A DNA stretch of 59,680 nt from NCBI GenBank assembly GCA_963748825.1, contig CAVVKN010000017.1, positions 1-59,680 of the forward strand, written 5' to 3'. The position numbers were made by a program, and so were the translations under genes. The number at the start of each line of letters is the position of its first letter. Positions within the stretch are counted from its first letter, which is position 1. A model generated the notes under the pieces. The model had not been told where the DNA came from. It made no database searches and saw nothing but the letters and a program-made list of their open reading frames with translations. This document shows, piece after piece, positions 10,379 through 41,447 of the stretch. The stretch is from Methanotrichaceae archaeon. GTDB taxonomy: Archaea; Halobacteriota; Methanosarcinia; Methanotrichales; Methanotrichaceae.

Positions 10379-10987
10379 ATGCTTAAGATTACCCCTTATA
10401 TTGGAATCATGGTGCTAATAGTATCCATAGGCGGCATATTTTACCCCAAGCTTGGCTACTTCCTCTTGCTGGTCTTTGCCAGCCTGATGATCATTGCTCC
10501 CTTCCGGGGACGCTGGTTTTGCGGTAATCTCTGCCCGCGGGGAAGCTTCGTCGATTTCTGGCTGGGCCCCCTGAGCCGAAAGTTGAGAATACCACCTCTT
10601 TTTCGGAGCATGTGGCTGCGAGCCCCCATCTTCTTCGCTCTTATGGGATTCATGGTCTTTCGCATCATACAGACTGAAGGCATAGTGGACAAAATAGGAA
10701 TGGTTTTTGTTACGCTTTGCATTCTAACCACATCAATTGCCATCCTCTTTGGTGTAATCATAGCCCCTCGAACCTGGTGCTCCTTTTGTCCCATGGGCAC
10801 GCTGCAAAGAGCAATGGGGGGTAAGAAGTACCAGCTAAAAGTAGACGCGGAGAAATGCATCGATTGCGGTAAATGCCAGAAGGTCTGTCCTATGCAGCTT
10901 TCTGTAAATGAGATACTGGACAAGCCGGACTGCATTAAATGCGCCAGATGCGTAGAGGCTTGCCCGAAGCATGCATTGAGTTTCTGA
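10379..10987 (+). CDS. Membrane 4Fe-4S binding protein (NapH/MauN-like)
   Basis: GRWFCGNLCPRG and RTWCSFCPMG plus two CxxCxxCxxxCP ferredoxin motifs; TM helices. Confidence 0.88.
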   Translation: MLKITPYIGIMVLIVSIGGIFYPKLGYFLLLVFASLMIIAPFRGRWFCGNLCPRGSFVDFWLGPLSRKLRIPPLFRSMWLRAPIFFALMGFMVFRIIQTEGIVDKIGMVFVTLCILTTSIAILFGVIIAPRTWCSFCPMGTLQRAMGGKKYQLKVDAEKCIDCGKCQKVCPMQLSVNEILDKPDCIKCARCVEACPKHALSF

Positions 10988-11000
10988 TTGATTTTTAAAC

Positions 11001-11047
11001 GCAATACCCCGCAGCTTGCTACGCGGGTGCGCCGTCGCCGTTTCACT
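11001..11047 (+). repeat. Palindromic IS200/IS605- or REP-like end (CAATACCCCGCAGCTTGCTACGCGG...); second copy at 6421-6455
   Basis: Imperfect hairpin CCGCAGC-TT-GCTACGCGG; repeated in window; family assignment from recollection only. Confidence 0.55.
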
Positions 11048-11214
11048 CCAGAGTCCTTTGCCCTAATTACATTCGCTTCGCACAGATCAACTATATATCT
11101 CATCAATCCCTCCACTTAACCAAGACATGATTCCATGCAGGCTTCAAGTGCTACTTGGATGATCGATTACTTCTCTCTAGGAGAGATTTTGGAGTCACTA
11201 GACGGCCCCACAGA

Positions 11215-11454
11215 GTAGGGAGGGAACACCCCGAACCTGTCCGATGAGATCTGAACCTATGCATCTTGCGACTGCGTCGCAAATCCCGCAATCTCTGCGG
11301 AGTTGCCGTGATCGCGAATCTGATGTAAGTTTGGGCCAATGAAACGGAAACCGAAAATTCCCGCAAAACGTGCCCCGATGCCAGAGGGCTATGACGGCAC
11401 AACAACTAGGAAACAGAGGGAAGCCCCGGCCTTCAGGCTGCGGGAGGAGTTCAC
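11215..11454 (+). mobile_element. Orphan IS605/IS1341 (TnpB-type) right end / omega(re)RNA-like scaffold without tnpB
   Basis: GTAGGGAGGGAACACCCCGAA (11215) and GAAGCCCCGGCCTTCAGGCTGCGGGAGGAGTTCAC (11420-11454) resemble the 5' scaffold and right-end hairpin+TCAC of tnpB elements; no TnpB ORF nearby. Confidence 0.65.
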
Positions 11455-11495
11455 ATATGCCAAAGTGCTATTGAAAGATCGGAGGTGAAGGCAAG

Positions 11496-11648
11496 ATGTG
11501 TACTGTTGGAGGCGGGCCGGACATAGGAAATATCGAGACTCTAGCCGCAAAGGATTATGAATGTCTGGACTGCAAGAATCAGTTTAAGGGAATGGGCAGA
11601 AGGCCCATGTGTCCTACCTGCAAATCCAGGAACGTCAAGGCAGTCTAA
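11496..11648 (+). CDS. Small 50-aa zinc-ribbon protein (absent from ORF track)
   Basis: GGAGGTGA RBS at 11481; MCTVGGGPDIGNIETLAAKDYECLDCKNQFKGMGRRPMCPTCKSRNVKAV; CxxC..CxxC. Confidence 0.8.
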   Translation: MCTVGGGPDIGNIETLAAKDYECLDCKNQFKGMGRRPMCPTCKSRNVKAV

Positions 11649-11653
11649 GGGCC

Positions 11654-12115
11654 ATGCATATACTCATCAAGGAGGACGAGATAGCTTATCTCGCGGGCCG
11701 CAGGGGCACTTTAGCGATAGCCAAGACGAAAGGAAACTTTTTTTATCTGGAGACGGAGTCTGAGGAGATTGTGCTCTTCACTGATCCGGAGGATCTGATG
11801 GTGGCCTCTTCCGCCAGCGTTGGCGAAAAGGTTATGCGTGGTCTTCGCTGTACCATTTATCAGCTTCGGGAACTGGGCGAACCGCTGATAGTGCTCCCTA
11901 AAGGCCATCCTGCATCACCTCGTTTGAAGACGGTGGTGTCCATCGGCCCTCGCACTCGTTTAAGCTGCAAGATCCATCCGGGAACGCATCCCGAGCAGGA
12001 TGTGCTCTGCGGATCAGAGGAGTTTCACGAGATGGAAGTGCTGGCGAAGCCCGGGGGCGCGGAAATATTGGGCATAACTTCAAAAGAAAGCGATATTATT
12101 GTGCAGAAGCTGTAG
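11654..12115 (+). CDS. Hypothetical protein (probably methanogen-conserved)
   Basis: ATG 11654 (MHILIKEDE) follows the zinc-ribbon gene; PGTHPEQDVLC motif; tight operon. Confidence 0.7.
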   Translation: MHILIKEDEIAYLAGRRGTLAIAKTKGNFFYLETESEEIVLFTDPEDLMVASSASVGEKVMRGLRCTIYQLRELGEPLIVLPKGHPASPRLKTVVSIGPRTRLSCKIHPGTHPEQDVLCGSEEFHEMEVLAKPGGAEILGITSKESDIIVQKL

Positions 12116-12129
12116 AAACGGGTGATTTT

Positions 12130-12411
12130 ATGGCGGAGATCAAAGAAGACAGCCTGGTCAGGTACAAGGGCACGGGCACCATAGGAACGGTCAAGGTGCT
12201 GAAGGTTGAAGACGACGGAGAGACTTGGGCCTATTTAGACAGCACCGGCCTTTACTACCGCCTGGATACCCTGGAGCTGATCGAAAAGCCCCCGGAGAGA
12301 AAAGAACTGGAGGGCATGACCATTGAACAGATCCAAGATCGGTTCAAGCAGACGCAAGATATGATGGATGCGGTTAAGATGCAGGATGACAACCTGGAGA
12401 CGGGCGGGTAA
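12130..12411 (+). CDS. DUF2098-family protein
   Basis: VRYKGTGTIGTV..TWAYLDSTGLYYR pattern; GGTGA RBS. Confidence 0.75.
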   Translation: MAEIKEDSLVRYKGTGTIGTVKVLKVEDDGETWAYLDSTGLYYRLDTLELIEKPPERKELEGMTIEQIQDRFKQTQDMMDAVKMQDDNLETGG

Positions 12412-12553
12412 AGATTAGAGCCAAAATCAAACGGTACTACTAGAGCCCAAAGATCGCAAATTCTGCAATTTGCTCAAAGAAGAGAAGGATTCTATGAATA
12501 GCTCCAAGCTCCCGAAGGATGATAAAAAGCTCTAATGCAATTATAGAGTCAAG

Positions 12554-13666
12554 ATGCGTGATGACAGCCAGGGGTTTATCGCCAGGATAGGCGTAGTGGT
12601 GCACGGCCCGGAGATCATAGACAGCGGCTGTGCTCTGCAACTGATCAATTACCTGAAAAAGCTGGGCAGCGTAACGGCGGTTTTGGGCGGAACCATGGGC
12701 AGGGTGGCTGTAATCGATGCCGGCCTGGAGGATGTAATCTCTATCCGCCCCAGGAGGAGGCCAAGCCTCTCCATTCAGGATTTGGAGGCAACATCAGATG
12801 TCATTTTTCTTCTCAACCAGGCCAAGGGCCGGGAGAGCGGCCTCGTCTTCGGTACAATGGTGGCGGCGGCAGCCGGGATGGGAAAACCGCTTATCCAAAT
12901 CGACTGCGGCGGAAGATTCGTGGCCATCCTCTCAGGAAAAGAAGGCGATCTGGCTGTGCAGGTCGCCTCGGACCTGGGTCTCGATAGCCTGCTCAATCCG
13001 CCGCTGCCAGGCGTATCTTTTGGGAAAGACATCACTAAGCGCTCTCTCTCAGGTGTTTGTCCAGGCGAGCTTATCTCGATCAACGGAATTGTGATCGGCA
13101 GGGCTGCAGAGAGCCGTGTGGAGATCGAAGCCAAAGACGGCAAGATAATGGCCATGAAGGGCGTAAAGCCAAAGCAGCACGGCCTGGAGAAGCTCTCCTG
13201 GGTTGATTTGGAGAAGGCTATCATCCGCAGCGGCTCCATCCGGCGAAGCGAAGTCAGGCCGAGACTTGGGGCGTGCGGGAGAGGAGACAAGGGCGAAGGC
13301 AAATGGGCAGTTCTCATCGATCACTGTGCAGAAGATGCCTTTGAGGTGGCACAGGGAGCCAGTGTGGCCGTCACGGTGGGAGACGATACCACACTCATTG
13401 CCGGAGATATCCTGGCCCGGCTGGGTATACCCGTTATCGGCATCGTGGATGGAGATCTGGACCGTCTGGCCGGTTGCACCACAATGCTGCCAGGAAGCGT
13501 TGTCTTCCGGGTCATGCCGGGGCACGATGATCTGGTGGGCAGGCGAGTGAAGGCAGAGATATTCCAGGGAGAGAGCCGGATCTGCATCAGCGCCGGCGAT
13601 CTAATAGAGAAGGTGAAAAGGCTGGCAGGAGAGCAACTCGTCGAAACGGAACAGATAAAATCCTAA
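12554..13666 (+). CDS. DUF2117-family protein
   Basis: [29 protein letters not shown]; TVGDDTT..GDIL.RLG.P.IGIVDGD. Confidence 0.8.
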
Positions 13667-14970
13667 TTGTCCTTAATGGCCTGAAGCTCCCGGAAAAAGA
13701 CAGCTGCGGTGGCGGTATCGCCCAGGCCTACGGTAATCTTTGGATTTTTCGCCTGAAGAGACGGCATCAAGGATACAATCTCTTCTCCTGAATGAAGAAA
13801 TGCGCCCCACCCCGATGCTGTGGCCCCATTGCGGCAAAACTCCTCTTTAGCCTCAAGCCCCACGGAATTGACATCCTCAGGAGGCTCTCCCGTTACAAAG
13901 CCTGTGGCTGCCAAAGCGGCTGCGGCATTGGTCCCCTGCTGCAAGGCAGAAAGCTCTTCTTTTGCAGTGATCTTTCCTCGCAACATGACGCTAAGAATGT
14001 AGTCTCGGGTATGAACCGCTACTCTGAAAAGCCCCAGGCTTTTGCGCAGCCGCTCCGCTGCTTGCATGGTCTCCTGCCACCGGGCTGGCAATGATCCAGG
14101 CGATAATCCTTCTGCTGCCGCCAGCTCGTCCTCATTCAGTCCCAGGCTGTCCACAGGAATTTGCGGGAGAAGCAAAAGAAGAGACTGCAGGATCTTTGGG
14201 CTCTGGAAGCTGCCCATCTCGGCGTGGATGAAGATGTGCGGGTTTTTATCCTTCCAGGATTTGATCTGCGCGATTTTCTGCGGGAAGATCTCCTGGTACT
14301 CCTCAAATGGTACCAGGTGAAAGCCGGAGAGCAGTGCGCCGTTGAAATCCCGGATATTTTCCAGGCAATAGGAGTCGAAATGCTGGCTGGAGAGGAGCCT
14401 GGTATTCACCGGATCGTATGTGGCAATAAAACGATTATCGCTAGGCGCAGTTATCACGCTCTGCCCACAGTGAATTGCGTCTCCCTTCTTGAACTGGAAA
14501 ACGAAATGCTCCATTTCAGTTTTTTCGTCTTGATCTCTTGCTTGATCTGCTTCAAGCTCTCCTACCGCCTGGCTTGGCACTGTGGGCCCGGAAACCGGCA
14601 CGCACACTCCGGTATGCAGCATACCGGCCAGTTTCGCTCCCAGTGCGGGAGCATTGAGAACAGGCCGGGCCCCCAGTGCGGCCAGGACATTGGCCATGAT
14701 GCCGGCATTTCCGCCCAGGCGAAATTGCCAGGAAAAGGACTCTTCGATCTGCATGGCCGTCGCCTGGCTCTCGATTAGAATTTCTGCCCCCGATCCCTGC
14801 TGCATGCAGAATAACAGGCAGGATAGGAGGTCCTCACGGCTGCTTATCGACTCTTTTAGCTTAATTTTCGTATTGGAAGCAAGGCTCGATGAGATGAGGG
14901 CCGATATCTCCTCTCCCTGTACATTGTAGACGGCATCGACGTTTACGGTATAGGCGCAAATGATATTCAT
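13663..14970 (-). CDS. pfkC: ADP-dependent phosphofructokinase/glucokinase
   Basis: [39 protein letters not shown]. Confidence 0.9.
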
Positions 14971-15115
14971 AGTAGTCTCGCCGGAAAGCCCGAAGCTTTG
15001 TTCATTGTATCAGATTTATTTTCCGCTTTGATAGGAATGGGCGCAAAATTGATATTAGAATGTGCAGGCGGCAAAAGAGAGCTTGCTGCCCCCCCGCATC
15101 ATCCCCTAAATCCAT

Positions 15116-15625
15116 CTACACCAAAATGATCGGATCCTTACAGGCGCAGGAGAGCGAACGGGACATTACGATATCCGTATCGACACTTCTTCTTACCAGT
15201 GCCTTTTGATAAGATGGATCGATCTGGGTGGCTTTCTTGTACGCCTGGACGGCGGTATAGTAGTATCCCTTGAAGTCGTAAATGACTCCCATGTTGTACC
15301 AGGCCTCGGCATAAGACTCATTGAGGGCCACTGCATTTCCAAAAGACTGGAGCGCCTCGTCGTACCTTCCTAAAAGACCCTCGTCAATTCCTTTATTGTT
15401 CCAGGCCTCGAAATCATTTGGGTCCAGCTCGAGAGCCCTATTGTAGGCCTGCAGGGAATCATTGAATCTTTCCTGGTTGTAAAGATCAAGACCCTTCATG
15501 AACCAATCCATCGAGGTTTCATTTGCTCCGGCACAGGCTGGCGCTGTGAAAGCCCAAATCAGCGCTAAGGTGACCAGCACCAAGGAGACTTGTCGCGAAC
15601 TGCAATTCGTTTTTCTTCCTCCCAA
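15116..15625 (-). CDS. Exported TPR protein
   Basis: Signal peptide; three TPRs (AWNNKG, AWYNMG). Confidence 0.85.
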   Translation of the reverse strand: MGGRKTNCSSRQVSLVLVTLALIWAFTAPACAGANETSMDWFMKGLDLYNQERFNDSLQAYNRALELDPNDFEAWNNKGIDEGLLGRYDEALQSFGNAVALNESYAEAWYNMGVIYDFKGYYYTAVQAYKKATQIDPSYQKALVRRSVDTDIVMSRSLSCACKDPIILV

Positions 15626-15672
15626 TCAGCTCATTTAGTTTCTTGTAATGATAAAGCTTCTGCATATTTTTC

Positions 15673-16836
<1,164 letters not shown>

Positions 16837-16902
16837 CTAGAAGTATAATCCTTTGCCAGCTTTATGCAAAAAGTGATATATTTTCCAGTCGTTTTCAGGT
16901 CA

Positions 16903-17847
16903 ATGGCTTTAGTCATAGGTCACCGAGCAGCCGCCGCCCTGGCAGCAGAGAACACCCTGGAGGGCATCAGAGCTGCCGCTTTGTGCAAAGCAGACTATGT
17001 GGAGCTGGATGTAAGGCTCTCTCGCGACGGCGAACTGGTCTTGATGCATGATGAGCGGGTGGACAGAACCACCAATGGCAACGGCTTGGTTGAAGAACTC
17101 AATCTGGAGGAGCTAAAAGCCCTAGAGGTGAGAGGCTGTATTTGCCAGTGCATGGAAAGCCGGAGAATTGCAACGCTGAAAGAGGCCATATCTCTGGCCG
17201 GGGAGCTTGGCCTGGGCCTGGTGGTGGAGATGAAAGAAGAGGGCCTGGAAGGACTGGTGGCCGAAGCTCTCTCGGACAAAAAATGCATTGTGACTTCCTT
17301 TTACCATAGCAGCCTGCGCGAATTATCGGACATTTCGGATCTGAAGACGGGCATCATCATCTCGTCGTTGCCCATAAATCCTGTGCAGTTGGCCATTTGG
17401 GCAAGAGCGGCGGCCATTTTTCCGAAGCGAGTCAATGCCAGGCTCTTCAAGGAGGCGCATCAGCAGGGAATAGCTGTCTTTCCCTGGACAGTCAATAGCA
17501 AAGAAGAGGCGAGCTGGCTCCTCAGGCTGGGGGCCGATGGACTGGTAACCGATGACCCGTGCCTGATCCGGGAGGTAGCCGACCAGCCAGTACAGGCTAC
17601 GGGCAAAGAAAATTGCCAGTATTATCCGTGCCACCACTTCCCTGATCAGGACTGCACACACTGCTTTTGCCCCTTATATCCATGCAAAGATGAAGTGCTT
17701 GGCAAGTACGTGAGAACCAAAAAAGGAAAGAGGTTTTGGACCTGCATCAACTGCCAGCTTGTGCACCGTCCAATTGTGGCCGCATACCTAATGCAGCATC
17801 CGCAAGCGACCACTGCCGAGCTGAAAGCCTTGCAGACTGAAAAATGA
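16903..17847 (+). CDS. Glycerophosphodiester phosphodiesterase fused to C-terminal Cys-rich small (zinc-finger-like) domain
   Basis: GHR..ENTL..ELDVRLSRDG..HD..RTT; WTVN; GLVTDDP; then NCQYYPCH..DCTHCFCPLYPC..WTCINC. Confidence 0.85.
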   Translation: MALVIGHRAAAALAAENTLEGIRAAALCKADYVELDVRLSRDGELVLMHDERVDRTTNGNGLVEELNLEELKALEVRGCICQCMESRRIATLKEAISLAGELGLGLVVEMKEEGLEGLVAEALSDKKCIVTSFYHSSLRELSDISDLKTGIIISSLPINPVQLAIWARAAAIFPKRVNARLFKEAHQQGIAVFPWTVNSKEEASWLLRLGADGLVTDDPCLIREVADQPVQATGKENCQYYPCHHFPDQDCTHCFCPLYPCKDEVLGKYVRTKKGKRFWTCINCQLVHRPIVAAYLMQHPQATTAELKALQTEK

Positions 17848-17941
17848 ATATCCATTGCCAATTTGTCAATTATACATTGCCCGGAAAAAGGCCTTTACCG
17901 ACGGAAAGCTTTATGGATACCTGAGGAACAATGCAAACCCC

Positions 17942-18415
17942 ATGAGACATATTATACTTGTACTACTTGCTCTGGTGGCTCTGGGTGGGCTATTGCCTGC
18001 TATTATGGCCGCACCTGTAGCGCCAGTTTTATTAGATAACCCCGCCGCTATGCCGGAACCAGCTCAAACCTCGCTGGAGACCACACCTTCTATGGCCGCT
18101 TTCCTCAATGATAGCTGGACACCGAGCACCTTCGTAGCTCCTCTGGCAAGCGAGGCCGTTGGGGTGCTGAGGAACATGACCCGCAATAACACCACTCAGG
18201 CCAGCTCCAACTATGCCATTTATGATTTCCTGAATGGCAATTACACCTCCCCGGCTCCCGCGTCACCTGTTTACACTGCCAGCGCAGCCGGAAAGGATAA
18301 GACGGTAGCCTGGACAGGCGAGAGCATCTATCAGTTTTTGGATGATGCATGGACTCCTGCAGCAGCAGTCCAAACATACGAGCAGTCTCCCTTCAAGATG
18401 CACCAGATGAACTGA
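17942..18415 (+). CDS. Hypothetical secreted protein with three short internal repeats
   Basis: Signal peptide from ATG 17942; repeats MAAFLNDSWTP / IYDFLNGNYTS / IYQFLDDAWTP. Confidence 0.7.
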   Translation: MRHIILVLLALVALGGLLPAIMAAPVAPVLLDNPAAMPEPAQTSLETTPSMAAFLNDSWTPSTFVAPLASEAVGVLRNMTRNNTTQASSNYAIYDFLNGNYTSPAPASPVYTASAAGKDKTVAWTGESIYQFLDDAWTPAAAVQTYEQSPFKMHQMN

Positions 18416-18437
18416 GATCAATTAGCTTCGCGGAAGA

Positions 18438-18478
18438 TGACAGGCGTCCCTTGAGCAGCCTGTCAAACCTATCTTTTT
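18438..18478 (+). terminator. Hairpin plus T-tract between convergent genes
   Basis: TGACAGGC (18438-45) / GCCTGTCA (18458-65) followed by TTTTT. Confidence 0.45.
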
Positions 18479-18496
18479 AATCTTTTAATCGGGTTT

Positions 18497-20248
18497 TCAG
18501 CCAGCTCTTTTGCCTGTATATCTCTTGAGATAAAGGCTCACCACATCATAAGGAATTGTGTGCTTCTCCAGCCGGAGATGATTGGCCAGTGCCTCCGCTT
18601 CTTTGCTGTAAGAGCCGGCCACCATTTCGGCGTACTTTATGCCGTCAGCGGTGAGCATGTATTCGTATCGCTGAAGCCATCTGCCTTTATCCTCATAGTG
18701 CCGCACGTCCTGATAGATCATGCCATTGGCAACCAAGATCTGAATGTCTTCAAAGAGCCTCTCGCTGTAGGGAAAGCCATATTCGGAGTGAAAAGAGTAG
18801 TCGAAAAGGCCGCAGAGGCCGGCCGGGCCCAGATCCTTTATCCTGGCCACCTGGCGGTAGAGCCAGGTTATGTTTCTGATCCGAGGAACAAGGATCTTCT
18901 GGCCGTAAGTCTCGGAAAGCATCTGGTGCAGGGTATAAAATAGCAGCAGTAGCCCGTCGATGGGAAGGTAGCTCTCGGAGCGAATGAAGGAGAGAAGCCG
19001 CAGCGCCTGGCTCCTCACCTCCGAGAGTGAGATCTCCCGCCTATCGTCCGAGAAGAAGGATATAGCGATTTGGCGGGTCAAAGATTTGACCAGACCCGCC
19101 GCCAAGGCCGACTCGTCATAAAAAAATCCATTCGCCTCTGTTCTCATGGACCCCGGCACTCCGCTGCCCACAGTGACATCCACCAATGCACCGTATTTTT
19201 TGCCGAGGGCGTCCTCGAAGAGCTTTCTCATGCGTCCGTGGCGGGAAACCGTGGAGAGAGCCATTCTGATATCCGGCGAAAGAGACCTGTGGTCAAACCT
19301 GGCCGCCAGGGGAAATTCCCGGCCGTATTTTATGCGCGCCAGGAGATCTCGGGAGGTGTCGTCCCCCCTCAGCCGGATGAAATCCAGAAGATCGGGGTCC
19401 GTATACTCCCGGAAGAACAGAACAATGCTGCTTTTGGCCTCATCCGCATCCATCCGGCTCAAGGCGCGCTCCAATGCAGCCAGCAGCATGGCACGGATGG
19501 ACTGAACCGTTGGATGGTAGATGAGTGCATTATAGTGATGGGCCCGGGCAATGAGCATCGACTCGGCCGCGGTCTGGGACATCTCGGCCCGATAGTCGCC
19601 CTCCCCCGCCAGCACAATGCGTCCATTGCTGATAGTCAGAGCCTGTAGTATCTGGTCGGTATCCACGAGGCCCAGGGAGACGCCCGAGTGGTGCGAATCA
19701 CGCAAGAGAAAGTCAATTCTGTCTGCATCCAGATCGCCCACGATGATCTGGCCTAGCGGAGCCCTAGCCCCTGAAGCTATGTCCGCAACCTCTCTAAATA
19801 ACTCGTCGGCATCACCGAAATCCCTCTTTGCAGCCTGTAAGGCTTCCTCTCCGAAGGGATGAGCCGCTATGATTTGGCGGGTGAACTCTTCATGTCTGGA
19901 AACACGCCTGCCTGCCAGAGTGGGCTGTATGTCCGGGTTTCGGCTGAGAACACTCTCCACTGCATGGGAGAGTGCCGAGTGCCCCAGATCGTGCAAAAGC
20001 CCGGCGAGGCGCACTTTTCGCACCTCTTCCTCGGAAAGGCCCAGATGCTTGGCCATCCGCCCGGCCATGTACATGGTTCCCAGAGAATGCTCGAACCTGC
20101 TATGGCTCGCTCCTGGATAGACCGTCTCCACCAGACCCAGCTGCTTAATTCCCTTCAGTCGCTGCACCGGCCGGGACAGGATGAGATGCCGCTCCAGCCC
20201 ATCTATCTGGATAGCCCCATGAACAGGGTCGCGAAGAGTGTCAAGCAT
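18497..20248 (-). CDS. HD-domain phosphohydrolase (SAMHD1/YwfO-like) with C-terminal YwgA-like winged-helix domain
   Basis: DPVHG, QRLKGIKQLG, HSRFEHSLG, LLHDLGH, DADRIDFLLRD; C-term YGFPYSERL..YEYMLTADG. Confidence 0.85.
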   Translation of the reverse strand: MLDTLRDPVHGAIQIDGLERHLILSRPVQRLKGIKQLGLVETVYPGASHSRFEHSLGTMYMAGRMAKHLGLSEEEVRKVRLAGLLHDLGHSALSHAVESVLSRNPDIQPTLAGRRVSRHEEFTRQIIAAHPFGEEALQAAKRDFGDADELFREVADIASGARAPLGQIIVGDLDADRIDFLLRDSHHSGVSLGLVDTDQILQALTISNGRIVLAGEGDYRAEMSQTAAESMLIARAHHYNALIYHPTVQSIRAMLLAALERALSRMDADEAKSSIVLFFREYTDPDLLDFIRLRGDDTSRDLLARIKYGREFPLAARFDHRSLSPDIRMALSTVSRHGRMRKLFEDALGKKYGALVDVTVGSGVPGSMRTEANGFFYDESALAAGLVKSLTRQIAISFFSDDRREISLSEVRSQALRLLSFIRSESYLPIDGLLLLFYTLHQMLSETYGQKILVPRIRNITWLYRQVARIKDLGPAGLCGLFDYSFHSEYGFPYSERLFEDIQILVANGMIYQDVRHYEDKGRWLQRYEYMLTADGIKYAEMVAGSYSKEAEALANHLRLEKHTIPYDVVSLYLKRYTGKRAG

Positions 20249-20250
20249 AC

Positions 20251-20647
20251 CTATTTTGAAGCCAGCTTTATTATGGCAGCAGCCAGGTCTCCTTTGGCCG
20301 CCTGCAGGGCAGCTTTTGCCTCCGGCAAATTCGCGCCAGTTTGAGCGGCTACTAGCTGCACGTCCGAGTCCGGAATCTCAATTGGGGGCTCTTCTGCCGT
20401 CTCCCTGGCCAGCGGACGGCGCACGCTCAGTTACATCGCCGGATATCTGAAAGCTTCGTGTGCCGTGGGAATCCATGATCGCGACAGATGGATTGGTTAT
20501 GACAATTTCCTTGTCAGGCATGCGAATGATAACCTCGGAGACGTTCTCAAGCTCATCGATATCAATGCCCATGTTCTTCAACATGCCTTTCATCTTCTTG
20601 GGGCTCATGCCGCCCCTTCCGCCTAATCCTCCAAGTCCTGGAAACAT
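20251..20647 (-). CDS. nac: Nascent polypeptide-associated complex protein, frameshifted near 20410 in this sequence
   Basis: NAC domain (MKGMLKNMGIDIDEL..EVII..NPSV..FQISG) in one frame; UBA domain IPDSDVQLVAAQTG..AKAAL..KGDLAAAIIKL in +1 frame ending TAG at 20251. Confidence 0.85.
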
Positions 20648-21026
20648 ATAATCACCTTTTTCTCAGAGGTGATTAATTGTAGGTAAAGATATCGATACTT
20701 TTTTTGCTATTGATCAGAAATTAGGCTCCTTGACTTTGGAGATGAGCAATAGGAATGAAGCTGAGCTGGGAAGCACGCCTTGGTATTTCTTGATCCTGTT
20801 ATCTTTGATATCTACGGAATAAAATACCTGATTATTGGTGATGCAGAAAATATCTTCAACAATCATTGTCGTCATCAGGTATAAAATGAAAGCGTTCCTG
20901 ACAGATAATGGAGGGCCTCATTCTTTTGGCATTTCAAGCATTGCTGGCGTTCCATGCATTTTTTGGCGTCTTAAGAATCAGTTTCGCCATCATAGGAAGA
21001 GTTATGTTGCCGAAAGGGCCACTTAA

Positions 21027-22880
21027 ATGCCAATGAAAGAGCAGCCCCGTTTCCTGCCTATGTCCCTGCAGGAGGCAAGAAAGCTAGGAATAGAGCAGTT
21101 TGATGTAATTCTCATAAGCGGAGACGCTTACGTTGATCACCCCTCCTTTGCTGCGGCTATCATCGGCCGGGTGCTCTGGGATGCCGGCTACAGCGTGGGC
21201 ATTGTCGCCCAGCCCGACTGCAAAAAGGATGATGACTTTCGCAAGCTGGGCCGGCCGCGCCTCTTCTTCGGCATATCCTCGGGAAACGTGGACTCCCTGG
21301 TGAACAACTTAACGCCCAACTTAAAACGGCGAAGCTCAGACGTCTATTCGCCCGGCGGAGCCTTGCTCCGGCCGGACAGGGCAACAATCGTTTACACTAA
21401 TAAGGTTCATGCCCTCTTTCCCGGCGTTCCGATTGTTTTAGGCGGGATCGAGGCCAGCTTGCGCCGCTTTGCCCATTACGATTACTGGTCGGACTCCGTT
21501 CGCCAGTCCATCCTTGCCGACGCGCCCGCTGATCTGATCATCTACGGCATGGGTGAGAATCCTTTGCGAGAGGTGGCCCTGAGGCTGGAGAAGGGCGAGA
21601 GAATTGAGGAGATCCAGGACGTTGCTGGAACCACGGTCAAAGAGGAGATCAGCCGCTGGCGTAGCAGCCCGCGCGAAGACTGCCTGGTTATCCCCAGCTT
21701 CACAGAGGTTTCCACGGACAAGAGAAAATACGCCCAGGCCTTCGCCCTGCACTACAAAGAGCAGGATCCTTTCCACGGGCGGGCAGTTGTCCAGCCGCAC
21801 CCCAAGACAGTCATCATCCAAAACCCGCCGGCGCGGCCCCTGAGGACGGAGGAGCTTGACCGCATTTACGAGCTGCCCTTTGCCCGCGAGGCTCATCCCT
21901 CTTACCAGGAGCCCATACCGGCCTTAGAGCCGGTGCGCTTCTCCATCACCAGCCATCGGGGCTGCTTCGGATCCTGCTCCTTTTGCGCTCTGACCCACCA
22001 CCAGGGCAGGATTGTGCAGAGCAGAAGCGAAGATTCCATCCTGCGCGAGGCTACGAAGCTGACGAAGATGAAGGGCTTTCACGGCATCATTTCCGATGTG
22101 GGCGGGCCGACGGCCAACATGTACGCCCTTTCCTGCCCACGCTGGAAGCAGGGCGCATGCTCCGACAAGCTCTGCTCGGCTGAGTGCCCGAGCCTGGACA
22201 AAGACCACTCCAGGCAGGTAGATCTCTTGCGGCGGCTCCGGAAAATTCCCGGAGTGAAAAAGGTCTTCATCGGCTCGGGCATCAGGCACGACCTGATAAT
22301 GGCTGACCATTCCCCCTACCTGGAAGAGCTTTGCCGGCATCACGTCTCCGGCCACCTCAAGATTGCACCCGAGCACATCTCTCGATCAGTAACAGAGTGC
22401 ATGCATAAGCCCCCCTGCGAGGTCCTGGATGCTTTCCGGGAGCGCTTTTCCGCCGCCAGCAAGGCGGTGGGAAAGGAGCAGTACCTTCTGCCCTATCTCA
22501 TGTCCGGTCATCCCGGCTGCACTGTGTTGGAGATGGTCGAGCTGGCTGAGTACTTGCGTGACAATCGCATGTACACGGAGCAGGTGCAGGACTTCACACC
22601 TACGCCCATGACCGTTTCCACTGCCATGTACTACACCGGTCTCGACCCCTTCAGCCTCACGCCCGTGCACGTGCCCAAAGGTCGAGAGAAGAGGATTCAG
22701 CGGGCCATGCTGCGGTACCGGGACCCCAATAACTACGATCTGGTCAAAGAGGGCCTGCAGATGGCCGGCCGGGCGGACCTCATCGGCGAGGGGAGGCAGT
22801 GCCTGATACCGGCACGGCCGGCGGGCGGGCGTGGGTGGGGGCTAGAGAAGAGAAGGAATGAAAAGAAAAAAACGAAGTAG
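21027..22880 (+). CDS. YgiQ/UPF0313-family radical SAM protein
   Basis: GDAYVDHPSF, GGIEASLRR.AHYDYW, CFGSCSFC, DVGGPTANMY, QVQDFTPTP. Confidence 0.93.
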   Translation: MPMKEQPRFLPMSLQEARKLGIEQFDVILISGDAYVDHPSFAAAIIGRVLWDAGYSVGIVAQPDCKKDDDFRKLGRPRLFFGISSGNVDSLVNNLTPNLKRRSSDVYSPGGALLRPDRATIVYTNKVHALFPGVPIVLGGIEASLRRFAHYDYWSDSVRQSILADAPADLIIYGMGENPLREVALRLEKGERIEEIQDVAGTTVKEEISRWRSSPREDCLVIPSFTEVSTDKRKYAQAFALHYKEQDPFHGRAVVQPHPKTVIIQNPPARPLRTEELDRIYELPFAREAHPSYQEPIPALEPVRFSITSHRGCFGSCSFCALTHHQGRIVQSRSEDSILREATKLTKMKGFHGIISDVGGPTANMYALSCPRWKQGACSDKLCSAECPSLDKDHSRQVDLLRRLRKIPGVKKVFIGSGIRHDLIMADHSPYLEELCRHHVSGHLKIAPEHISRSVTECMHKPPCEVLDAFRERFSAASKAVGKEQYLLPYLMSGHPGCTVLEMVELAEYLRDNRMYTEQVQDFTPTPMTVSTAMYYTGLDPFSLTPVHVPKGREKRIQRAMLRYRDPNNYDLVKEGLQMAGRADLIGEGRQCLIPARPAGGRGWGLEKRRNEKKKTK

Positions 22881-22909
22881 CGAACAAATATAAGCTGCAA
22901 AGAGATTGA

Positions 22910-23464
22910 ATGGAAGATTTTGCGGATAGATACGGCAGCCGTTTTGTGAAATTGGTGGACAGCCGTGCTACCGGAAAGGAGTTTGAATTCGATCAGGTAC
23001 TGCTCATGCCGACAGCCGCAGGCTATCGCGCTCTGGTGGAGCAGGCCCAAGTCGAGATCAAGCCCAGGATAATGAGATATCTATCCAGGAGATGGTCGGA
23101 GGGCGCAATAGAGAACCTCTCTTTTTTTGCCATGGCCGTAGCCGTTTATGCCCGAAGCGTCTCCGATCCGCCACTCACAATTGATGTGGGAAAGGTGCTG
23201 CTCAGAACAGTGACCTTTTGCAATCGCAGATGCGCCAACAGAAAGAGCTCAGGGGGCGGATGCAAGCTGGCAATGAACCGAGCGGAACATCATCTGCCCA
23301 AATGCATCAAAATTCCCAGGGATGTTGCGGTTATCCTGGGCTGCCTGAAGAGATATATCGCAACCGGCAAAGTCACAAGCGGCCGGGATGCTGCAAACGT
23401 GCATGAGGCCATGAGCGTGAAGGTCGATCCGGGATCGGACTATGCTCCGGCGACGTCGTGCTGA
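22910..23464 (+). CDS. Hypothetical protein with Cys cluster
   Basis: 184-aa ORF directly after radical SAM gene; CNRRC..C..C. Confidence 0.55.
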   Translation: MEDFADRYGSRFVKLVDSRATGKEFEFDQVLLMPTAAGYRALVEQAQVEIKPRIMRYLSRRWSEGAIENLSFFAMAVAVYARSVSDPPLTIDVGKVLLRTVTFCNRRCANRKSSGGGCKLAMNRAEHHLPKCIKIPRDVAVILGCLKRYIATGKVTSGRDAANVHEAMSVKVDPGSDYAPATSC

Positions 23465-23553
23465 GCTTTTTTTGCTGAGTGCTGATGAAAATAAAACAGA
23501 TTATAATCGTGGGAACATATTTTAAGCCGTAAAGCCTAACGGGAGCGGATCAT

Positions 23554-23913
23554 CTACCTCTCGTTACCTAAATCGTACATGATTTTCTTCATCGATTCCT
23601 GCAATGGTGGCAGATCATCCTGCAATGTTTGCCATACTACTTCTATGTCAACCCCAAAGTAGGCATGGATCAACTTATCACGCATGCGGGCAAGTCCGCT
23701 CCAGGGAACGTCTGGATATCTGTCTCTTATTGAAGGAGGTATGTTCTTGGCTGCCTCTCCAATGACTTCGATCACTCGAATTGCAGCTAATACCTTTTCT
23801 TCATTGCTCTGAAATGCACCGTAATCGAGATCTTCAACAATACGCATTCCCTTCTCAGCATACTGGGCCATGTCCTCTAAAAAATCCAGGAAGTCTCTCG
23901 ATCCCGCTTTCAT
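23554..23913 (-). CDS. hepT: HepT/DUF86 HEPN ribonuclease toxin
   Basis: IEVIGEAAKNIP..VPWSGLARMRDKLIHAYFGVD (Rx4H). Confidence 0.9.
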   Translation of the reverse strand: MKAGSRDFLDFLEDMAQYAEKGMRIVEDLDYGAFQSNEEKVLAAIRVIEVIGEAAKNIPPSIRDRYPDVPWSGLARMRDKLIHAYFGVDIEVVWQTLQDDLPPLQESMKKIMYDLGNER

Positions 23914-24230
23914 ATGGGAATCACTTCTGCCAGGATTCGCTGGCCAATGTGGGTCTTCAGGGCCTTTTTCATGACCAGATCGACCTTGATGCCCAGCTTT
24001 TCGCTCAGTTCATCCTCCATGCGAATGAACTCCAAGAGCGACGGAGCCTGGTGAAACTCCACAAGTATATCCAGATCGCTCGACTTCTTCGCCTCTCTGC
24101 GGACATACGATCCAAAGATGCCTAAGGACTTCACGTTATACCGTTCTGTGACCTCAGGCATGCTCTGTTTGAGAACCTGCTCAATCTCCTCCAGCGACCG
24201 GGCCTGCCAGTTGGCTTTGGGCTGTGCCAT
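23910..24230 (-). CDS. mntA: Minimal nucleotidyltransferase (MNT/MntA) antitoxin
   Basis: FGSYVRREAKKSSDLDILVEF (GSx10DxD), KVDLV; overlaps hepT start. Confidence 0.9.
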   Translation of the reverse strand: MAQPKANWQARSLEEIEQVLKQSMPEVTERYNVKSLGIFGSYVRREAKKSSDLDILVEFHQAPSLLEFIRMEDELSEKLGIKVDLVMKKALKTHIGQRILAEVIPI

Positions 24231-24380
24231 AATAATCCCCGAATAGTTCTGAGGATAGAACCTCAGTTCATCCATATTGAAGCGCATGATTATCTAGTTA
24301 ATGGGAAAGATAGGGCCAAAAAGCTCTCCTCCTCTTGATGGAGCAGAGGGAGCAATTCCTGACCCATTGGATAATTCTAT

Positions 24381-24656
24381 TCAATTTTTGGCTTTACTTT
24401 GAGACTTTATCATTTTTTCGGATAGATCTCTTGCTAATATTAATATCATTTCATCGATAATGCTATCTGGCTTAGGCATTAATTCAGAATTTTTTCCCAT
24501 CAGAGCGGACCTTAGCGTCGTTCCCCTTTCAGAAACCCTGGATTGCGGGATTTTTATTGCAGTCCCATCAAGCTTTTGCATTACGTAGTGTATTATTTCG
24601 ATATCGCCCTTCGTTTCTTCAGAACCTATATCTTTTGCTTTTCTGAGATTTTCCAA
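24381..24656 (-). other. Short AT-rich ORF or gene fragment, unassigned
   Basis: 91-aa frame without clear start context; no recognisable motif. Confidence 0.3.
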
Positions 24657-24904
24657 GACATCATCGAAACAGCGAACGCCTTTCCTGAAAAGAATAAACT
24701 ATGTAGATGCTGCAGAGAGATAGCTCTCAGAAGATTCTCTTGGATTCGGGAGCTTTTCCTGAGCTGCACCAAGCGCAACAAAAGATCGGGCACCAATAGG
24801 TCGTCCGGAGGCTGAAAAGAGCTGGCTAAATCGTTTTAGTCAGATGTGTACAGCGAAAGTGTCTATTAATATTATGAATGCATTTTAAGGCCAGGAGTAC
24901 TGAA

Positions 24905-25312
24905 ATGAGACTTAGAGTAATCAGCGCCAGAAATGAGATCCCTAATTTGAACCCCAATGAGAAGACAGTTCACATGGCCTTTCGGGCCAGCAATGTAGAT
25001 TTCCTTAACCTGATGCAGAGATGTCCCAGGCTGAGGATGATTCAGGTTCCGCCATCTTATCGCAAGACCATGTCCAATGCCATCCAGGTATTCCTGGAGA
25101 TGCAGGGTGTTGAGATGCTGGAAGGCGACGTATGGGGCCACAGAAAGGACTTGGATGAGTACTTCACGGTAGACGACACCACGCTTGAGGAGATCCGTGT
25201 TCTGGCCGCCAGCGGCGCATCCGTCGATGATGTGGCCGATCAGATTCACAAGAAGGCCAGGATCAGCTTGGACCTTATCAAGTACATCACCAAGACCAAG
25301 ATTACCGCTTGA
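24905..25312 (+). CDS. DUF1699-family protein
   Basis: MRLRVISARNEI..HMAFR.SN.D..CPRL..IQVP.SY..EGDVWGHRKDLDEY. Confidence 0.85.
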   Translation: MRLRVISARNEIPNLNPNEKTVHMAFRASNVDFLNLMQRCPRLRMIQVPPSYRKTMSNAIQVFLEMQGVEMLEGDVWGHRKDLDEYFTVDDTTLEEIRVLAASGASVDDVADQIHKKARISLDLIKYITKTKITA

Positions 25313-25384
25313 GCTCGGAGGCTGAGCGACTCAGCTAGCCCACCTAACAATTTTTGTTATCGGTCTGCCGGCTTTCAACCGCCA

Positions 25385-25402
25385 ACTACAAATATCTATA
25401 AC
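25385..25402 (+). promoter_or_regulatory. Putative archaeal BRE/TATA promoter upstream of the structured RNA
   Basis: AT-rich CAAATATCTATAAC about 40 nt upstream of the closing stem, after the DUF1699 hairpin/T-tract. Confidence 0.4.
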
Positions 25403-25442
25403 GATTACATAGGTAGTTTGCTGCTTCATGCCATGATAGGGT

Positions 25443-25916
25443 GGCGGGCGTGCCGTGGGCTTAACGTATTCCGATGATGCTCTGATGACAGGGGAAATCT
25501 AGTGTGTTTGCTCCACCGTGGGGCAGCATGCCGCCAGCTCCTAGGGTTGGCCGATCAAAATCCCTTGGTACAGGAGATGCATGCCTTCGTGGCACTGCAT
25601 TTGGCTACGAGCCTGTGAGACTGAAACTTCGCGGCCTTGGAAAAAAGTTGCGCGCTATAACTGGCGCAGTAATCTGCCGGGAGATCTCACGCGAATACAC
25701 GGTCGGGGCATAAGCGGCACAAGTCAAGCCAAAGGCGAGAAGGCGGGCACATGGCCCCATGAGAACGGGTTCCAGTAAAACGGACGCTGTGTGAGATTCC
25801 AGCGCTGTGCCGCCTTCGAGCCCAGCTTATTAAAGTCGAGCTTTGGGTAGGGTCAGGCCATCACTACGGTGATCGGTCCCTTTGAGGAGGGCGCTGTGGA
25901 TCGGCGCTGGCCCGCC
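25443..25916 (+). ncRNA. Candidate large (~475 nt) highly structured noncoding RNA of unknown class
   Basis: Terminal stem 25443-55/25902-16, nested long-range stems 25456-62/25818-24, 25528-32/25707-11, 25552-56/25701-05, 25614-20/25685-91, 25714-21/25806-13; many hairpins; G-U wobbles and a cUACGg tetraloop favour + strand; no credible ORF. Confidence 0.7.
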
Positions 25917-26269
25917 TGTATCTCGATACTCATTCTCTTGATTATTTCATTGGCGTGAATGTGATCTTTTCTGGCCTGAATCGAAAACCTTTTATCTCGG
26001 CAATTGCCGTATATGGTATATGGCAAAGGTCGAAGTGTCTTTTTCCCTCCTACGTCACTGACTTTTGCCTCCCTCCTTCTTATCATCAAATCGGTGCTTT
26101 TGTCCCCATCAAGCAAGACTTGGGATCGAGCTCGTTTCAAGCTGTATCCGTATATCTGTTTTGAAATCGATTTTGCGGACTCATTGTTCTGATCTTCTGA
26201 AATACTTCTGTGACATTGCCCAATAAGAGTTATTCCGCTCCGGCTTAATATCAAAAAAGGATGTTTCGG

Positions 26270-26770
26270 TTAAACTCTAAAGCTAAACGTTCTATTAGCG
26301 AGTTGTTGCCCATTTGCAGTATAATATAATTTAAGTGTATAAGTTCCGGTTAACCAGGTATATTGGTTACCCAGGTACGAGGTTGGGACTATGTAGAGCC
26401 AATAATCGCAGCTCACTGGTTGGTTTATAGCGACTGAAGATATGGGAAAGACATTTTTTATAACGATAGCTGGACCGCCAGGTGGTACTGTAAGGGTTTC
26501 CAAATTAAAGTTGGACGCATCCAATCCACAAATATCTTGCTGGGTTACTGCGGATATAACCTTGACACCTACATTTACTGGCTCGCTGTTACCTGGAGAA
26601 GCCGGTGCTATCTTTATCAGATTAATGTTGATTGATGGTGCAATTTGTTGTGGGTTTGGCATTACTGCAACAGATTGACTGGGACGTATCACTGGTAGAG
26701 CTGCATTAACCATACTTACTGCAACTATAAGCAACAAAATAAAGGCCAGAAATGCTTTTGCTTTTTTCAT
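26270..26770 (-). CDS. Hypothetical secreted beta-rich protein (low GC)
   Basis: Signal peptide MKKAKAFLAFILLLIVAVSMVNA; GAGGTG RBS; GLDASNF..GTYTLKL. Confidence 0.75.
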   Translation of the reverse strand: MKKAKAFLAFILLLIVAVSMVNAALPVIRPSQSVAVMPNPQQIAPSININLIKIAPASPGNSEPVNVGVKVISAVTQQDICGLDASNFNLETLTVPPGGPAIVIKNVFPISSVAINQPVSCDYWLYIVPTSYLGNQYTWLTGTYTLKLYYTANGQQLANRTFSFRV

Positions 26771-41374: not shown

Positions 41375-41447
41375 CGCCCGGACCGGGATTCGAACCCGGG
41401 TCGAAAGCTCGACAGGCTTTCATGATGGGCCACTACACCATCCGGAC
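41375..41447 (-). tRNA. tRNA-Asp (GTC)
   Basis: Cloverleaf; anticodon arm AAAGC-CTGTCGA-GCTTT; GGTTCGAATCC T-arm. Confidence 0.97.

Follow-up and report, generated by a model that had tools for sequence, protein, structure and literature searches.

The stretch of DNA analysed here (the window, 59,680 nt from a Methanotrichaceae archaeon) carries a DUF1699 gene at 24878-25312 on the plus strand (Pfam E 3e-55), which lies on the 5' side of a GC-rich tract; on the opposite flank is a minus-strand frame of 166 aa that retrieved zero Pfam matches. No long reading frame is present between the two. The tract, whose GC content is higher than that of its 3' flank, holds the gene for a stand-alone, highly structured noncoding RNA of about 510 nt (25419-25927, plus strand), and the features of this gene and its surroundings are collected in Table 1. 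The conserved block exceeds the RNA and spans 25370-26090, i.e., the promoter, the RNA, and the T-rich tract with a small module. The BRE/TATA-like element, which a preliminary description of this DNA had pointed out as an upstream TATA-like sequence, is real and conserved among copies of the RNA, and the divergent paralogues G000:C6 and C23 retain it, spacing included. Judging from this spacing, transcription would start about 20-25 nt 3' of the element, near 25417-25421. Each gene of the RNA family has its own BRE/TATA promoter.

Table 1. Features of the RNA locus in the window; the two strands of a helix are separated by a slash.
Feature	Position	Strand	Basis or remark
BRE/TATA-like promoter element	25388-25403	+	near-invariant in 26/26 aligned full-length copies
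Noncoding RNA gene body, 509 nt	25419-25927	+	bounded by the outermost covarying pairs of the 97-copy consensus fold
Helix H1, 5' strand	25419-25432	+	partner 25707-25719; closes the 5' domain
Helix H1, 3' strand	25707-25719	+	consensus fold, pair counts
Branched 5' domain (H2-H11)	25433-25706	+	pair counts on 48 sequences
H2	25449-57/25698-705	+	5' domain
H3	25458-61/25610-13	+	5' domain
H3b	25465-68/25606-09	+	5' domain
H4	25471-74/25601-04	+	5' domain
H5	25480-83/25573-76	+	5' domain
H6	25489-93/25563-67	+	5' domain
Variable two-hairpin insert (~25510-24, ~25533-49)	25494-25562	+	missing from natural "short" variants
H8 hairpin	25577-85/25591-600	+	5' domain
H9	25614-20/25685-91	+	5' domain
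H10	25632-35/25676-79	+	5' domain
H11 hairpin	25647-56/25663-73	+	5' domain
Middle domain, four-way junction (H12-H15)	25739-25817	+	consensus fold, pair counts; part of covariance model R1
H12	25739-49/25808-17	+	middle domain
H13 hairpin, variable extension	25754-57/25767-70	+	middle domain
H14	25771-73/25782-84	+	middle domain
H15 hairpin	25785-91/25799-804	+	middle domain
3' domain, four-way junction (H16-H19)	25835-25927	+	consensus fold, pair counts
H16 long helix, 19 bp, covarying	25835-55/25908-27	+	closes the 3' domain
H17 hairpin, UACG loop	25856-64/25869-78	+	3' domain
H18	25879-81/25888-90	+	3' domain
H19 hairpin	25891-96/25902-07	+	3' domain
T-rich tract after the last helix	25928-25975	+	visible in the sequence; presumed termination region
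Separate downstream module	25976-26084	+	own BRE/TATA; ~10-bp hairpin GGCAAAGGUC/GACUUUUGCC, CCCUCC in the loop, UCCCUCC tail

No coding signal was found in the tract. Each copy of the RNA has about seven stops per plus-strand frame, and across 97 copies, 731 of the 889 indels have lengths not divisible by three, so no reading frame is conserved. The minimum free energy of the plus strand is -198.6 kcal/mol (z -2.07), compared to -166.1 (z -0.94) for the minus strand. In the 97-copy consensus fold, G-U pairs make up 14.8% of the paired cells, which fixes the plus strand.

To obtain this fold, 97 unique copies were collected and aligned with L-INS-i; this alignment replaced an earlier one of 45 sequences, on which RNAalifold had performed poorly. 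Mutual information with APC over the 97 copies was set aside, as it was dominated by subfamily signal, and a crude helix scan gave numerous chance helices in conserved sequence. The resulting fold, which is supported by compensatory changes, consists of three domains in series, i.e., a branched 5' domain closed by H1 followed by two four-way junctions. H1 has 14 pairs, seven of them changed on both sides, with 88.7% of cells paired, and it is retained in distant paralogues despite their differing 5' domain. When counted on 48 sequences from which the fold itself was derived, a control that leans toward structure, the 5' domain has 93.4% of cells paired, as opposed to 37.5-43.4% with slid partners, and 34 of its 80 pairs are changed on both sides, as opposed to 19.8 +/- 2.5 when shuffled (0/500 shuffles reach the observed count). 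Both hairpins of the variable insert covary, with 6/7 and 7/8 pairs changed on both sides, and the "short" deletion variants join query positions ~119 and 203. The 3' half, counted on 49 sequences with the same lean toward structure since they too were used to derive the fold, has 90.6% of cells paired (35.6-48.1% when slid) and 26/61 pairs changed on both sides (shuffled mean 15.4; 0/500 shuffles reach the observed count).

The 3' half was also counted on 17 rows unused in deriving the fold, which represent other genera and distant paralogues and include one weak reverse-strand row. Here 89.3% of cells are paired, compared to 77.1% when shuffled and 37.3-46.4% when slid, and 45 of the 61 pairs are changed on both sides, compared to 22.4 when shuffled, with none of 500 shuffles as high; because the alignment of these rows was fitted to the covariance model, this third control leans toward structure as well.

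The fold retains the central proposal of the preliminary description, a stand-alone, large, multi-junction plus-strand methanogen RNA outside the described families, and redraws much of its pairing scheme. The proposal is supported by many homologues with compensatory base changes, by RNA-library contigs on the tract (from assembled metatranscriptomes, whose contigs do not give ends), and by Rfam searches without a match; the gene-free, GC-rich character of the tract and the strand assigned from G-U pairs also hold. Among the helices drawn there, the stem UGUGAGA/UCUCACG (25614-20/25685-91) recurs in the 97-copy consensus, as do the hairpins at 25508-26, 25533-51, 25575-602 (97.8% standard pairs), and 25860-73 (cUACGg). 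The single closing stem had to be divided. Its GTGCCG strand pairs with 25698-25703 instead of CGGCGC, with position 25453 covarying with 25702 (CG in 70 and UA in 23 of 97 copies), and the CGGCGC side forms a local hairpin (25892-96/25902-06) with compensatory changes of its own. The remaining part, GGCGGGC/GCCCGCC, is 96.6% pairable, but it is near-invariant and its 3' strand belongs to the covarying 19-bp helix H16, which is present also in paralogues without the GGCGGGC stretch. Four long-range stems, ATGCC/GGCAT (70% standard pairs), CGATC/GGTCG (78%), GCGGCACA/TGTGCCGC (84%), and TGGGCTT/GAGCCCA (86%), are displaced by better-supported partners. A hairpin at 25630-52 has only 63% standard pairs, and one at 25661-80 clashes with the strongly covarying hairpin H11. 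The K-loop-like GATGA..CTGA is likewise not upheld: GAUGA occurs in 34/97 copies (GAUAA in 40/97) and CUGA in 56/97, and the boxes overlap the covarying helices H4 and H5. Finally, the extent given earlier, 25435-25922, was too short at both ends.

The genome from which the window derives (2.88 Mb, 25 contigs) contains three full copies of the RNA, on C17 (the copy in the window), C3, and C23, with 83-86% identity, as well as fragments and divergent paralogues. Using BLAST, the conserved block was found in all 24 further genomes sampled from the genus and in none of 16 genomes from other families in the class, and at E<=1e-20, 50 of 59 genomes of the genus were positive. R1, a covariance model built on the 3' half (195 positions, 61 pairs), finds eight places in the genome of the window and matches 53/74 other Methanotrichaceae genomes from 11 genera, with 1-10 matches per genome. 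R1 matched none of 76 genomes of four sister families, and four Methanotrichaceae genera had no R1 match (g10, 0/7; g16, 0/3; g20, 0/2; g22, 0/1 genomes). The full unit of about 700 nt, including the small module, occurs in other genera.

Public contigs with the block are titled Methanothrix, Methanosaeta, or Methanotrichaceae. The exact H19 motif is present in 80 public contigs, 53 of which match R1, namely all 52 with archaeal titles and one titled Oscillospiraceae; the latter consists of Methanothrix-like DNA and is thus mis-binned. The other 27, all bacterial, are chance matches, none of them matching R1. Among viral contigs there were two H19-motif matches, neither of which matches R1, and a second pattern gave zero matches. 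The RNA family is undescribed and, as far as searched, confined to the Methanotrichaceae (Methanothrix/Methanosaeta), and we are highly confident that it is a real, new family of structured noncoding RNA. Literature searches found no description of any Methanothrix or Methanosaeta RNA family of this kind; PMC10477309 describes routine Rfam annotation.

Contigs of the RNA were found in four assembled metatranscriptome runs from four studies, one of wetland, two of groundwater, and one of sediment. Both groundwater runs contain contigs of the flanking genes (one of 400 nt with 14 differences, two of 575 and 657 nt with 21), and from these long contigs we conclude that a close relative was present. 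The flank contigs have depths of 16-145, as against word depths of 10,841-25,000 for contigs inside the RNA (61-93 nt, 1-2 differences) in the same runs, where depths are summed over strains and paralogues in assembled contigs and show presence, not expression level or transcript ends. The wetland and sediment runs yielded 1,897 and 1,367 contigs, respectively, nearly all of them on the RNA. The depth ratio is beyond what a few DNA copies per genome explain, and we take it to mean that RNA of this family is apparently very abundant. Cover by RNA contigs is low at 25872-25938 (873/0/30/0) and near nil past 25939 (0-24 at 26006-26072, in the small module), and 5' of 25403 there are only low-depth contigs. 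Since the contigs are short and, at 25876-25891, this copy departs from the family consensus, we draw no conclusion on transcript ends or on the small module from this pattern. With a total of 141 pairs across three domains, more than 400 nt, noncoding, and represented in RNA-library contigs, the RNA is of the same kind as the large ornate orphan noncoding RNAs.

Comparison of the paralogues separates a constant from a variable part. The paralogues at C6:117440-117814 and at about 149.4-149.9 kb of C23 retain the promoter along with H1 and the 3' half, scoring 89.6 and 75 bits with R1, respectively, and their 5' domain differs from that of the main copies and is shorter. Copies with the 3' domain only also occur, and at G000:C20, the promoter and the first 20 nt of the RNA precede a signal-peptide gene. 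Certain single-stranded stretches are invariant, e.g., GGGUGGCGGG (25438-48) and CUAAUA (25692-97, in 81/97 copies). The separate downstream module has 15 copies in the genome of the window, three of which follow full RNA copies, two follow partial ones, and the others stand alone; in further genera the module is linked to the RNA as well.

We lean, by a small margin, towards a new family of ~510-nt RNA acting in trans as a scaffold or through protein binding as the explanation of the whole. The RNA would accumulate to a high level and act as a stable RNP scaffold or protein-binding RNA. Its constant part, H1 together with the 195-nt 3' half, would serve as a handle for stability and for recruitment of a hypothetical partner, and the 5' domain, which differs among paralogues, would be a head conferring paralogue-specific specificity. 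The scaffold or sequestering mechanism taken by itself is plausible and falls somewhat short of probable. The CsrB and RsmX-Z RNAs and 6S RNA are abundant and stable, have several paralogues, and act by protein binding, and it is to these that the mode of action thought of here may be likened; the Methanothrix RNA is much larger, with a more intricate fold and no evident repeated short binding motif. Against the scaffold proposal, no protein partner is predicted and no neighbouring gene is conserved beside all copies; the K-turn-like motif, which would point to L7Ae, lacks conservation. The existence of partial copies and shuffled modules, as would be expected of a repeat family, counts against the explanation as a whole.

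The RNA could, instead, be catalytic or assemble by itself into an RNA-only particle. GOLLD and ROOL occur in bacteria, often in association with phages; like the RNA described here, they are very large, have multiple junctions, and are orphan in function. Both have been reported to form RNA-only complexes (bioRxiv 10.1101/2024.12.08.627333). The size and multi-junction architecture of the Methanothrix RNA are compatible with such a role, as are its two four-way junctions without unpaired linker bases, the UUCG and UACG loops capping its hairpins, and the invariant single strands noted above, and the G-rich stretch could pair with GCCYGCC of a second molecule. However, there are zero matches to Rfam ribozyme families, and a 5' domain that varies among paralogues would be unusual in a ribozyme core. 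In contrast to GOLLD and ROOL, moreover, the Methanothrix genes are chromosomal and syntenic, with no true match among viral contigs and no match to the corresponding Rfam models. We consider a catalytic or RNA-only nature unlikely, though it fares best among the alternatives to a scaffold or protein-binding RNA.

A base-pairing regulatory RNA, in which the 5' domain would carry seeds for mRNAs and the constant 3' half would be a stability or chaperone module, could also account for a constant and a variable part and for several paralogues per genome, and the linked hairpin module abounds in anti-Shine-Dalgarno-like CCUCC motifs. In the main subfamily, however, the 5' domain is tightly paired, conserved, and covarying across genera, which leaves few free variable segments for such seeds. 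Complements of the conserved single-stranded G-rich stretch in the genome of the window are limited to the RNA genes and one site with two mismatches, and to our knowledge, the known archaeal base-pairing sRNAs are all far smaller than ~510 nt. Taken together, we regard a base-pairing regulator as improbable.

We give similarly little credence to the possibility that a selfish or once-mobile repeat (SINE/MITE-like, or originating from an IS200/IS605 TnpB guide RNA) is transcribed into the RNA, whose fold would then serve the element. What recommends a selfish repeat is the multi-copy nature of the family, the partial copies and shuffled modules (among them the 3'-domain-only copies and the promoter with 20 nt on C20), the occurrence of tandem pairs of copies, and the position of the C3 copy, which lies 274 nt behind a truncated OrfB_IS605 frame and ahead of a DDE transposase. 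Like TnpB omega and IS200/IS605-derived RNAs, the Methanothrix RNA is multi-copy and structured with a constant scaffold, and one copy is near a TnpB fragment. Unlike TnpB/IscB omega RNAs, it does not overlap a tnpB 3' end and has no variable guide, as the sequence past the last helix is conserved and runs into the shared module. Furthermore, the C3 locus is the only one of the eight R1 places in its genome near a TnpB match, and tblastn with the C3 TnpB fragment found none beside the other examined loci; no copy but that on C3 has transposase fragments at its flanks. Terminal direct or inverted repeats of at least 10 nt are absent around the copy in the window, and paralogues within the same genome differ by 14-30%, which argues that they are not recent insertions.

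The gene neighbourhoods speak against a selfish repeat as well. Among 132 elements from genomes and metagenomes, 38 have a DUF1699 gene upstream, at a median distance of 91 nt, with the gene of the MC1 chromatin protein further upstream of DUF1699; another paralogue is located after MoaA. With the DUF1699 and MC1 labels merged, five long-branch rows dropped, and 54/97 copies having flanks too short to label, copies at the DUF1699 locus cluster on the tree (7 label changes versus 12.9 when shuffled, 0/500 as low). When the two labels are kept separate, there is no clustering (11 changes versus 10.0 shuffled), because DUF1699 and MC1 belong to one locus, and the MoaA label, with three rows, does not cluster on the tree. 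DUF1699 itself was found in 105/105 Methanotrichaceae genomes, including genera without an R1 match, so that there is no co-occurrence signal with the RNA. The copies lie at syntenic housekeeping loci (MC1-DUF1699 and MoaA) and are probably stable paralogous genes rather than recent insertions.

The weakest alternative is that a housekeeping or intron RNA already known (RNase P, SRP, group II intron, raiA, or OLE) is present here in very diverged form. The comparable size and complexity and a loose likeness to raiA proposed in the preliminary description might suggest this, but it is highly improbable given that the RNA has its own promoter and lies outside any gene, that no Rfam model matches it, and that the RNase P and SRP RNAs are sited elsewhere in the genome. 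Rfam 15 (4,227 models, including raiA, OLE, GOLLD, ROOL, HEARO, group II intron, and ribozymes) gave no family match. At Rfam gathering scores, the whole window contains only a tRNA at 41375-41447, the region 25300-26050 searched at E<=10 returned two junk rows, both outside the RNA, and 20 diverse family members searched at E<=1 returned zero rows. ARAGORN found zero tRNA or tmRNA genes in 25300-26200. The archaeal RNase P RNA (RF00373) has its sole genome match at C9:33744-34048 (216.2 bits), and the archaeal SRP RNA (RF01857) at C23:164670-164984 (193.5 bits). Similar to the Methanothrix RNA, these two RNAs are stable, abundant, promoter-driven, and structured with UNCG-capped helices, but they are universal and single-copy, whereas the Methanothrix RNA is multi-copy and, as far as searched, limited to one archaeal family.

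The OLE RNA is encoded by a single gene beside its protein partners. As a large, ornate noncoding RNA it resembles the Methanothrix RNA, which is likewise an orphan in function. OLE is bacterial, however, whereas the Methanothrix RNA has 1-10 paralogues with no common neighbour and no match to the Rfam OLE model, and the kink turn of OLE for OapC has no conserved counterpart in it. In Bacillota, the OLE RNA is described as ornate, about 600 nt long, very highly expressed, and part of an RNP (PMC3413148, PMC9723947). The raiA motif RNA has been described as an abundant structured orphan RNA (PMC10861870). At the thresholds tried, the raiA model had no match to the Methanothrix RNA, so that the likeness proposed earlier is not borne out. 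The raiA motif RNA is bacterial and about 200 nt long.

Large, intricate RNAs that are orphan in function are rare, and the best known of them (OLE, GOLLD, ROOL, and raiA) are bacterial; we know of no lineage-specific large RNA of this kind described for archaea. The class of RNA reported here is new, and orphan large structured RNAs are already known as a general phenomenon. The family brings with it a fold backed by covariation, variants with naturally swapped domains, and numerous sequences from the environment, with copies in more than 120 metagenome contigs. More speculatively, it may be the first equivalent in archaea of the OLE/ROOL/GOLLD class. The RNA would then form the core of an abundant particle specific to Methanothrix, be it an RNP, an assembly of RNA only, or a ribozyme, in which a constant 3' handle carries exchangeable 5' heads supplied by the several paralogues, perhaps acting with the CCUCC-rich small-RNA module on translation. 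In wetlands, sediments, rice soils, and digesters, Methanothrix is among the chief producers of methane from acetate, and its most abundant non-ribosomal RNAs are thus part of the machinery behind much biogenic methane.

The HepT-like ribonuclease and the nucleotidyltransferase (MNT) encoded just upstream of the DUF1699 gene (window 24878-25312) are a toxin-antitoxin-type pair, and DUF1699 itself is a multi-copy gene family that was found in all 105 of the Methanotrichaceae genomes searched, with 6 matches in the window's own genome (G000) and a range of 1-20 per genome. The 166-aa reading frame directly downstream of the large RNA (window 26270-26770, minus strand) has no Pfam match.

Several genomes carry two copies of the large-RNA gene in tandem, with a spacing of 1-2.7 kb. 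The full copy on contig C3 of G000 sits between a truncated TnpB and a DDE transposase; this locus is rich in IS elements, which show no general association with the large RNA. At G000:C20:14027-14140, the promoter of the large RNA and its first ~20 nt are followed by GGAGG and then by a reading frame that opens with a signal-peptide-like start; a protein gene appears to have taken over the promoter module at this site.

Coordinates of the small module, tandem large-RNA pairs and neighboring genes
Feature	Location	Strand	Remarks
Small module	window 25976-26084		~105 nt; own BRE/TATA box
Small-module copies	G000 C2: 92670-92777; 105123-105228		
Small-module copies	G000 C4: 38937-39035; 44085-44189; 78193-78299		
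Small-module copies	G000 C10		two copies
Small-module copy	G000 C13: 27020-27120		
Small-module copies	G000 C14: 28261-28780		three listed, a fourth by BLAST
Small-module copy	G000 C25: 84915-85015		
Tandem large-RNA pairs	G012:C5:2248-4390; G147:C1:286893-288115; G009:C30:12840-16217		
Truncated TnpB (OrfB_IS605, 251 aa) and DDE transposase	G000:C3:82665-84152 and 85506-87065		around C3 copy of large RNA
HepT-like ribonuclease and MNT	window 23554-24287	-	just upstream of DUF1699 gene

A 5.6-kb contig titled as an Oscillospiraceae MAG (L223) was found to contain, at 2889-2973, only the 3' domain of the large RNA, a four-way junction, together with the small module that lies downstream. Because blastn matches this contig to the Methanothrix genome G000 at many places, it is probably mis-binned.

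The small module is present in 15 copies in G000, some of them in tandem arrangement, and in many copies per genome across the genus. It forms a hairpin of ~10 bp with the arms GGCAAAAGUC/GACUUUUGCC, in which an A-U pair is swapped for G-C in some copies; the loop contains CCCUCC, and a UCCCUCC tail follows the hairpin. Judged by its sequence, the module looks like a candidate multi-copy small RNA with anti-Shine-Dalgarno-like motifs.
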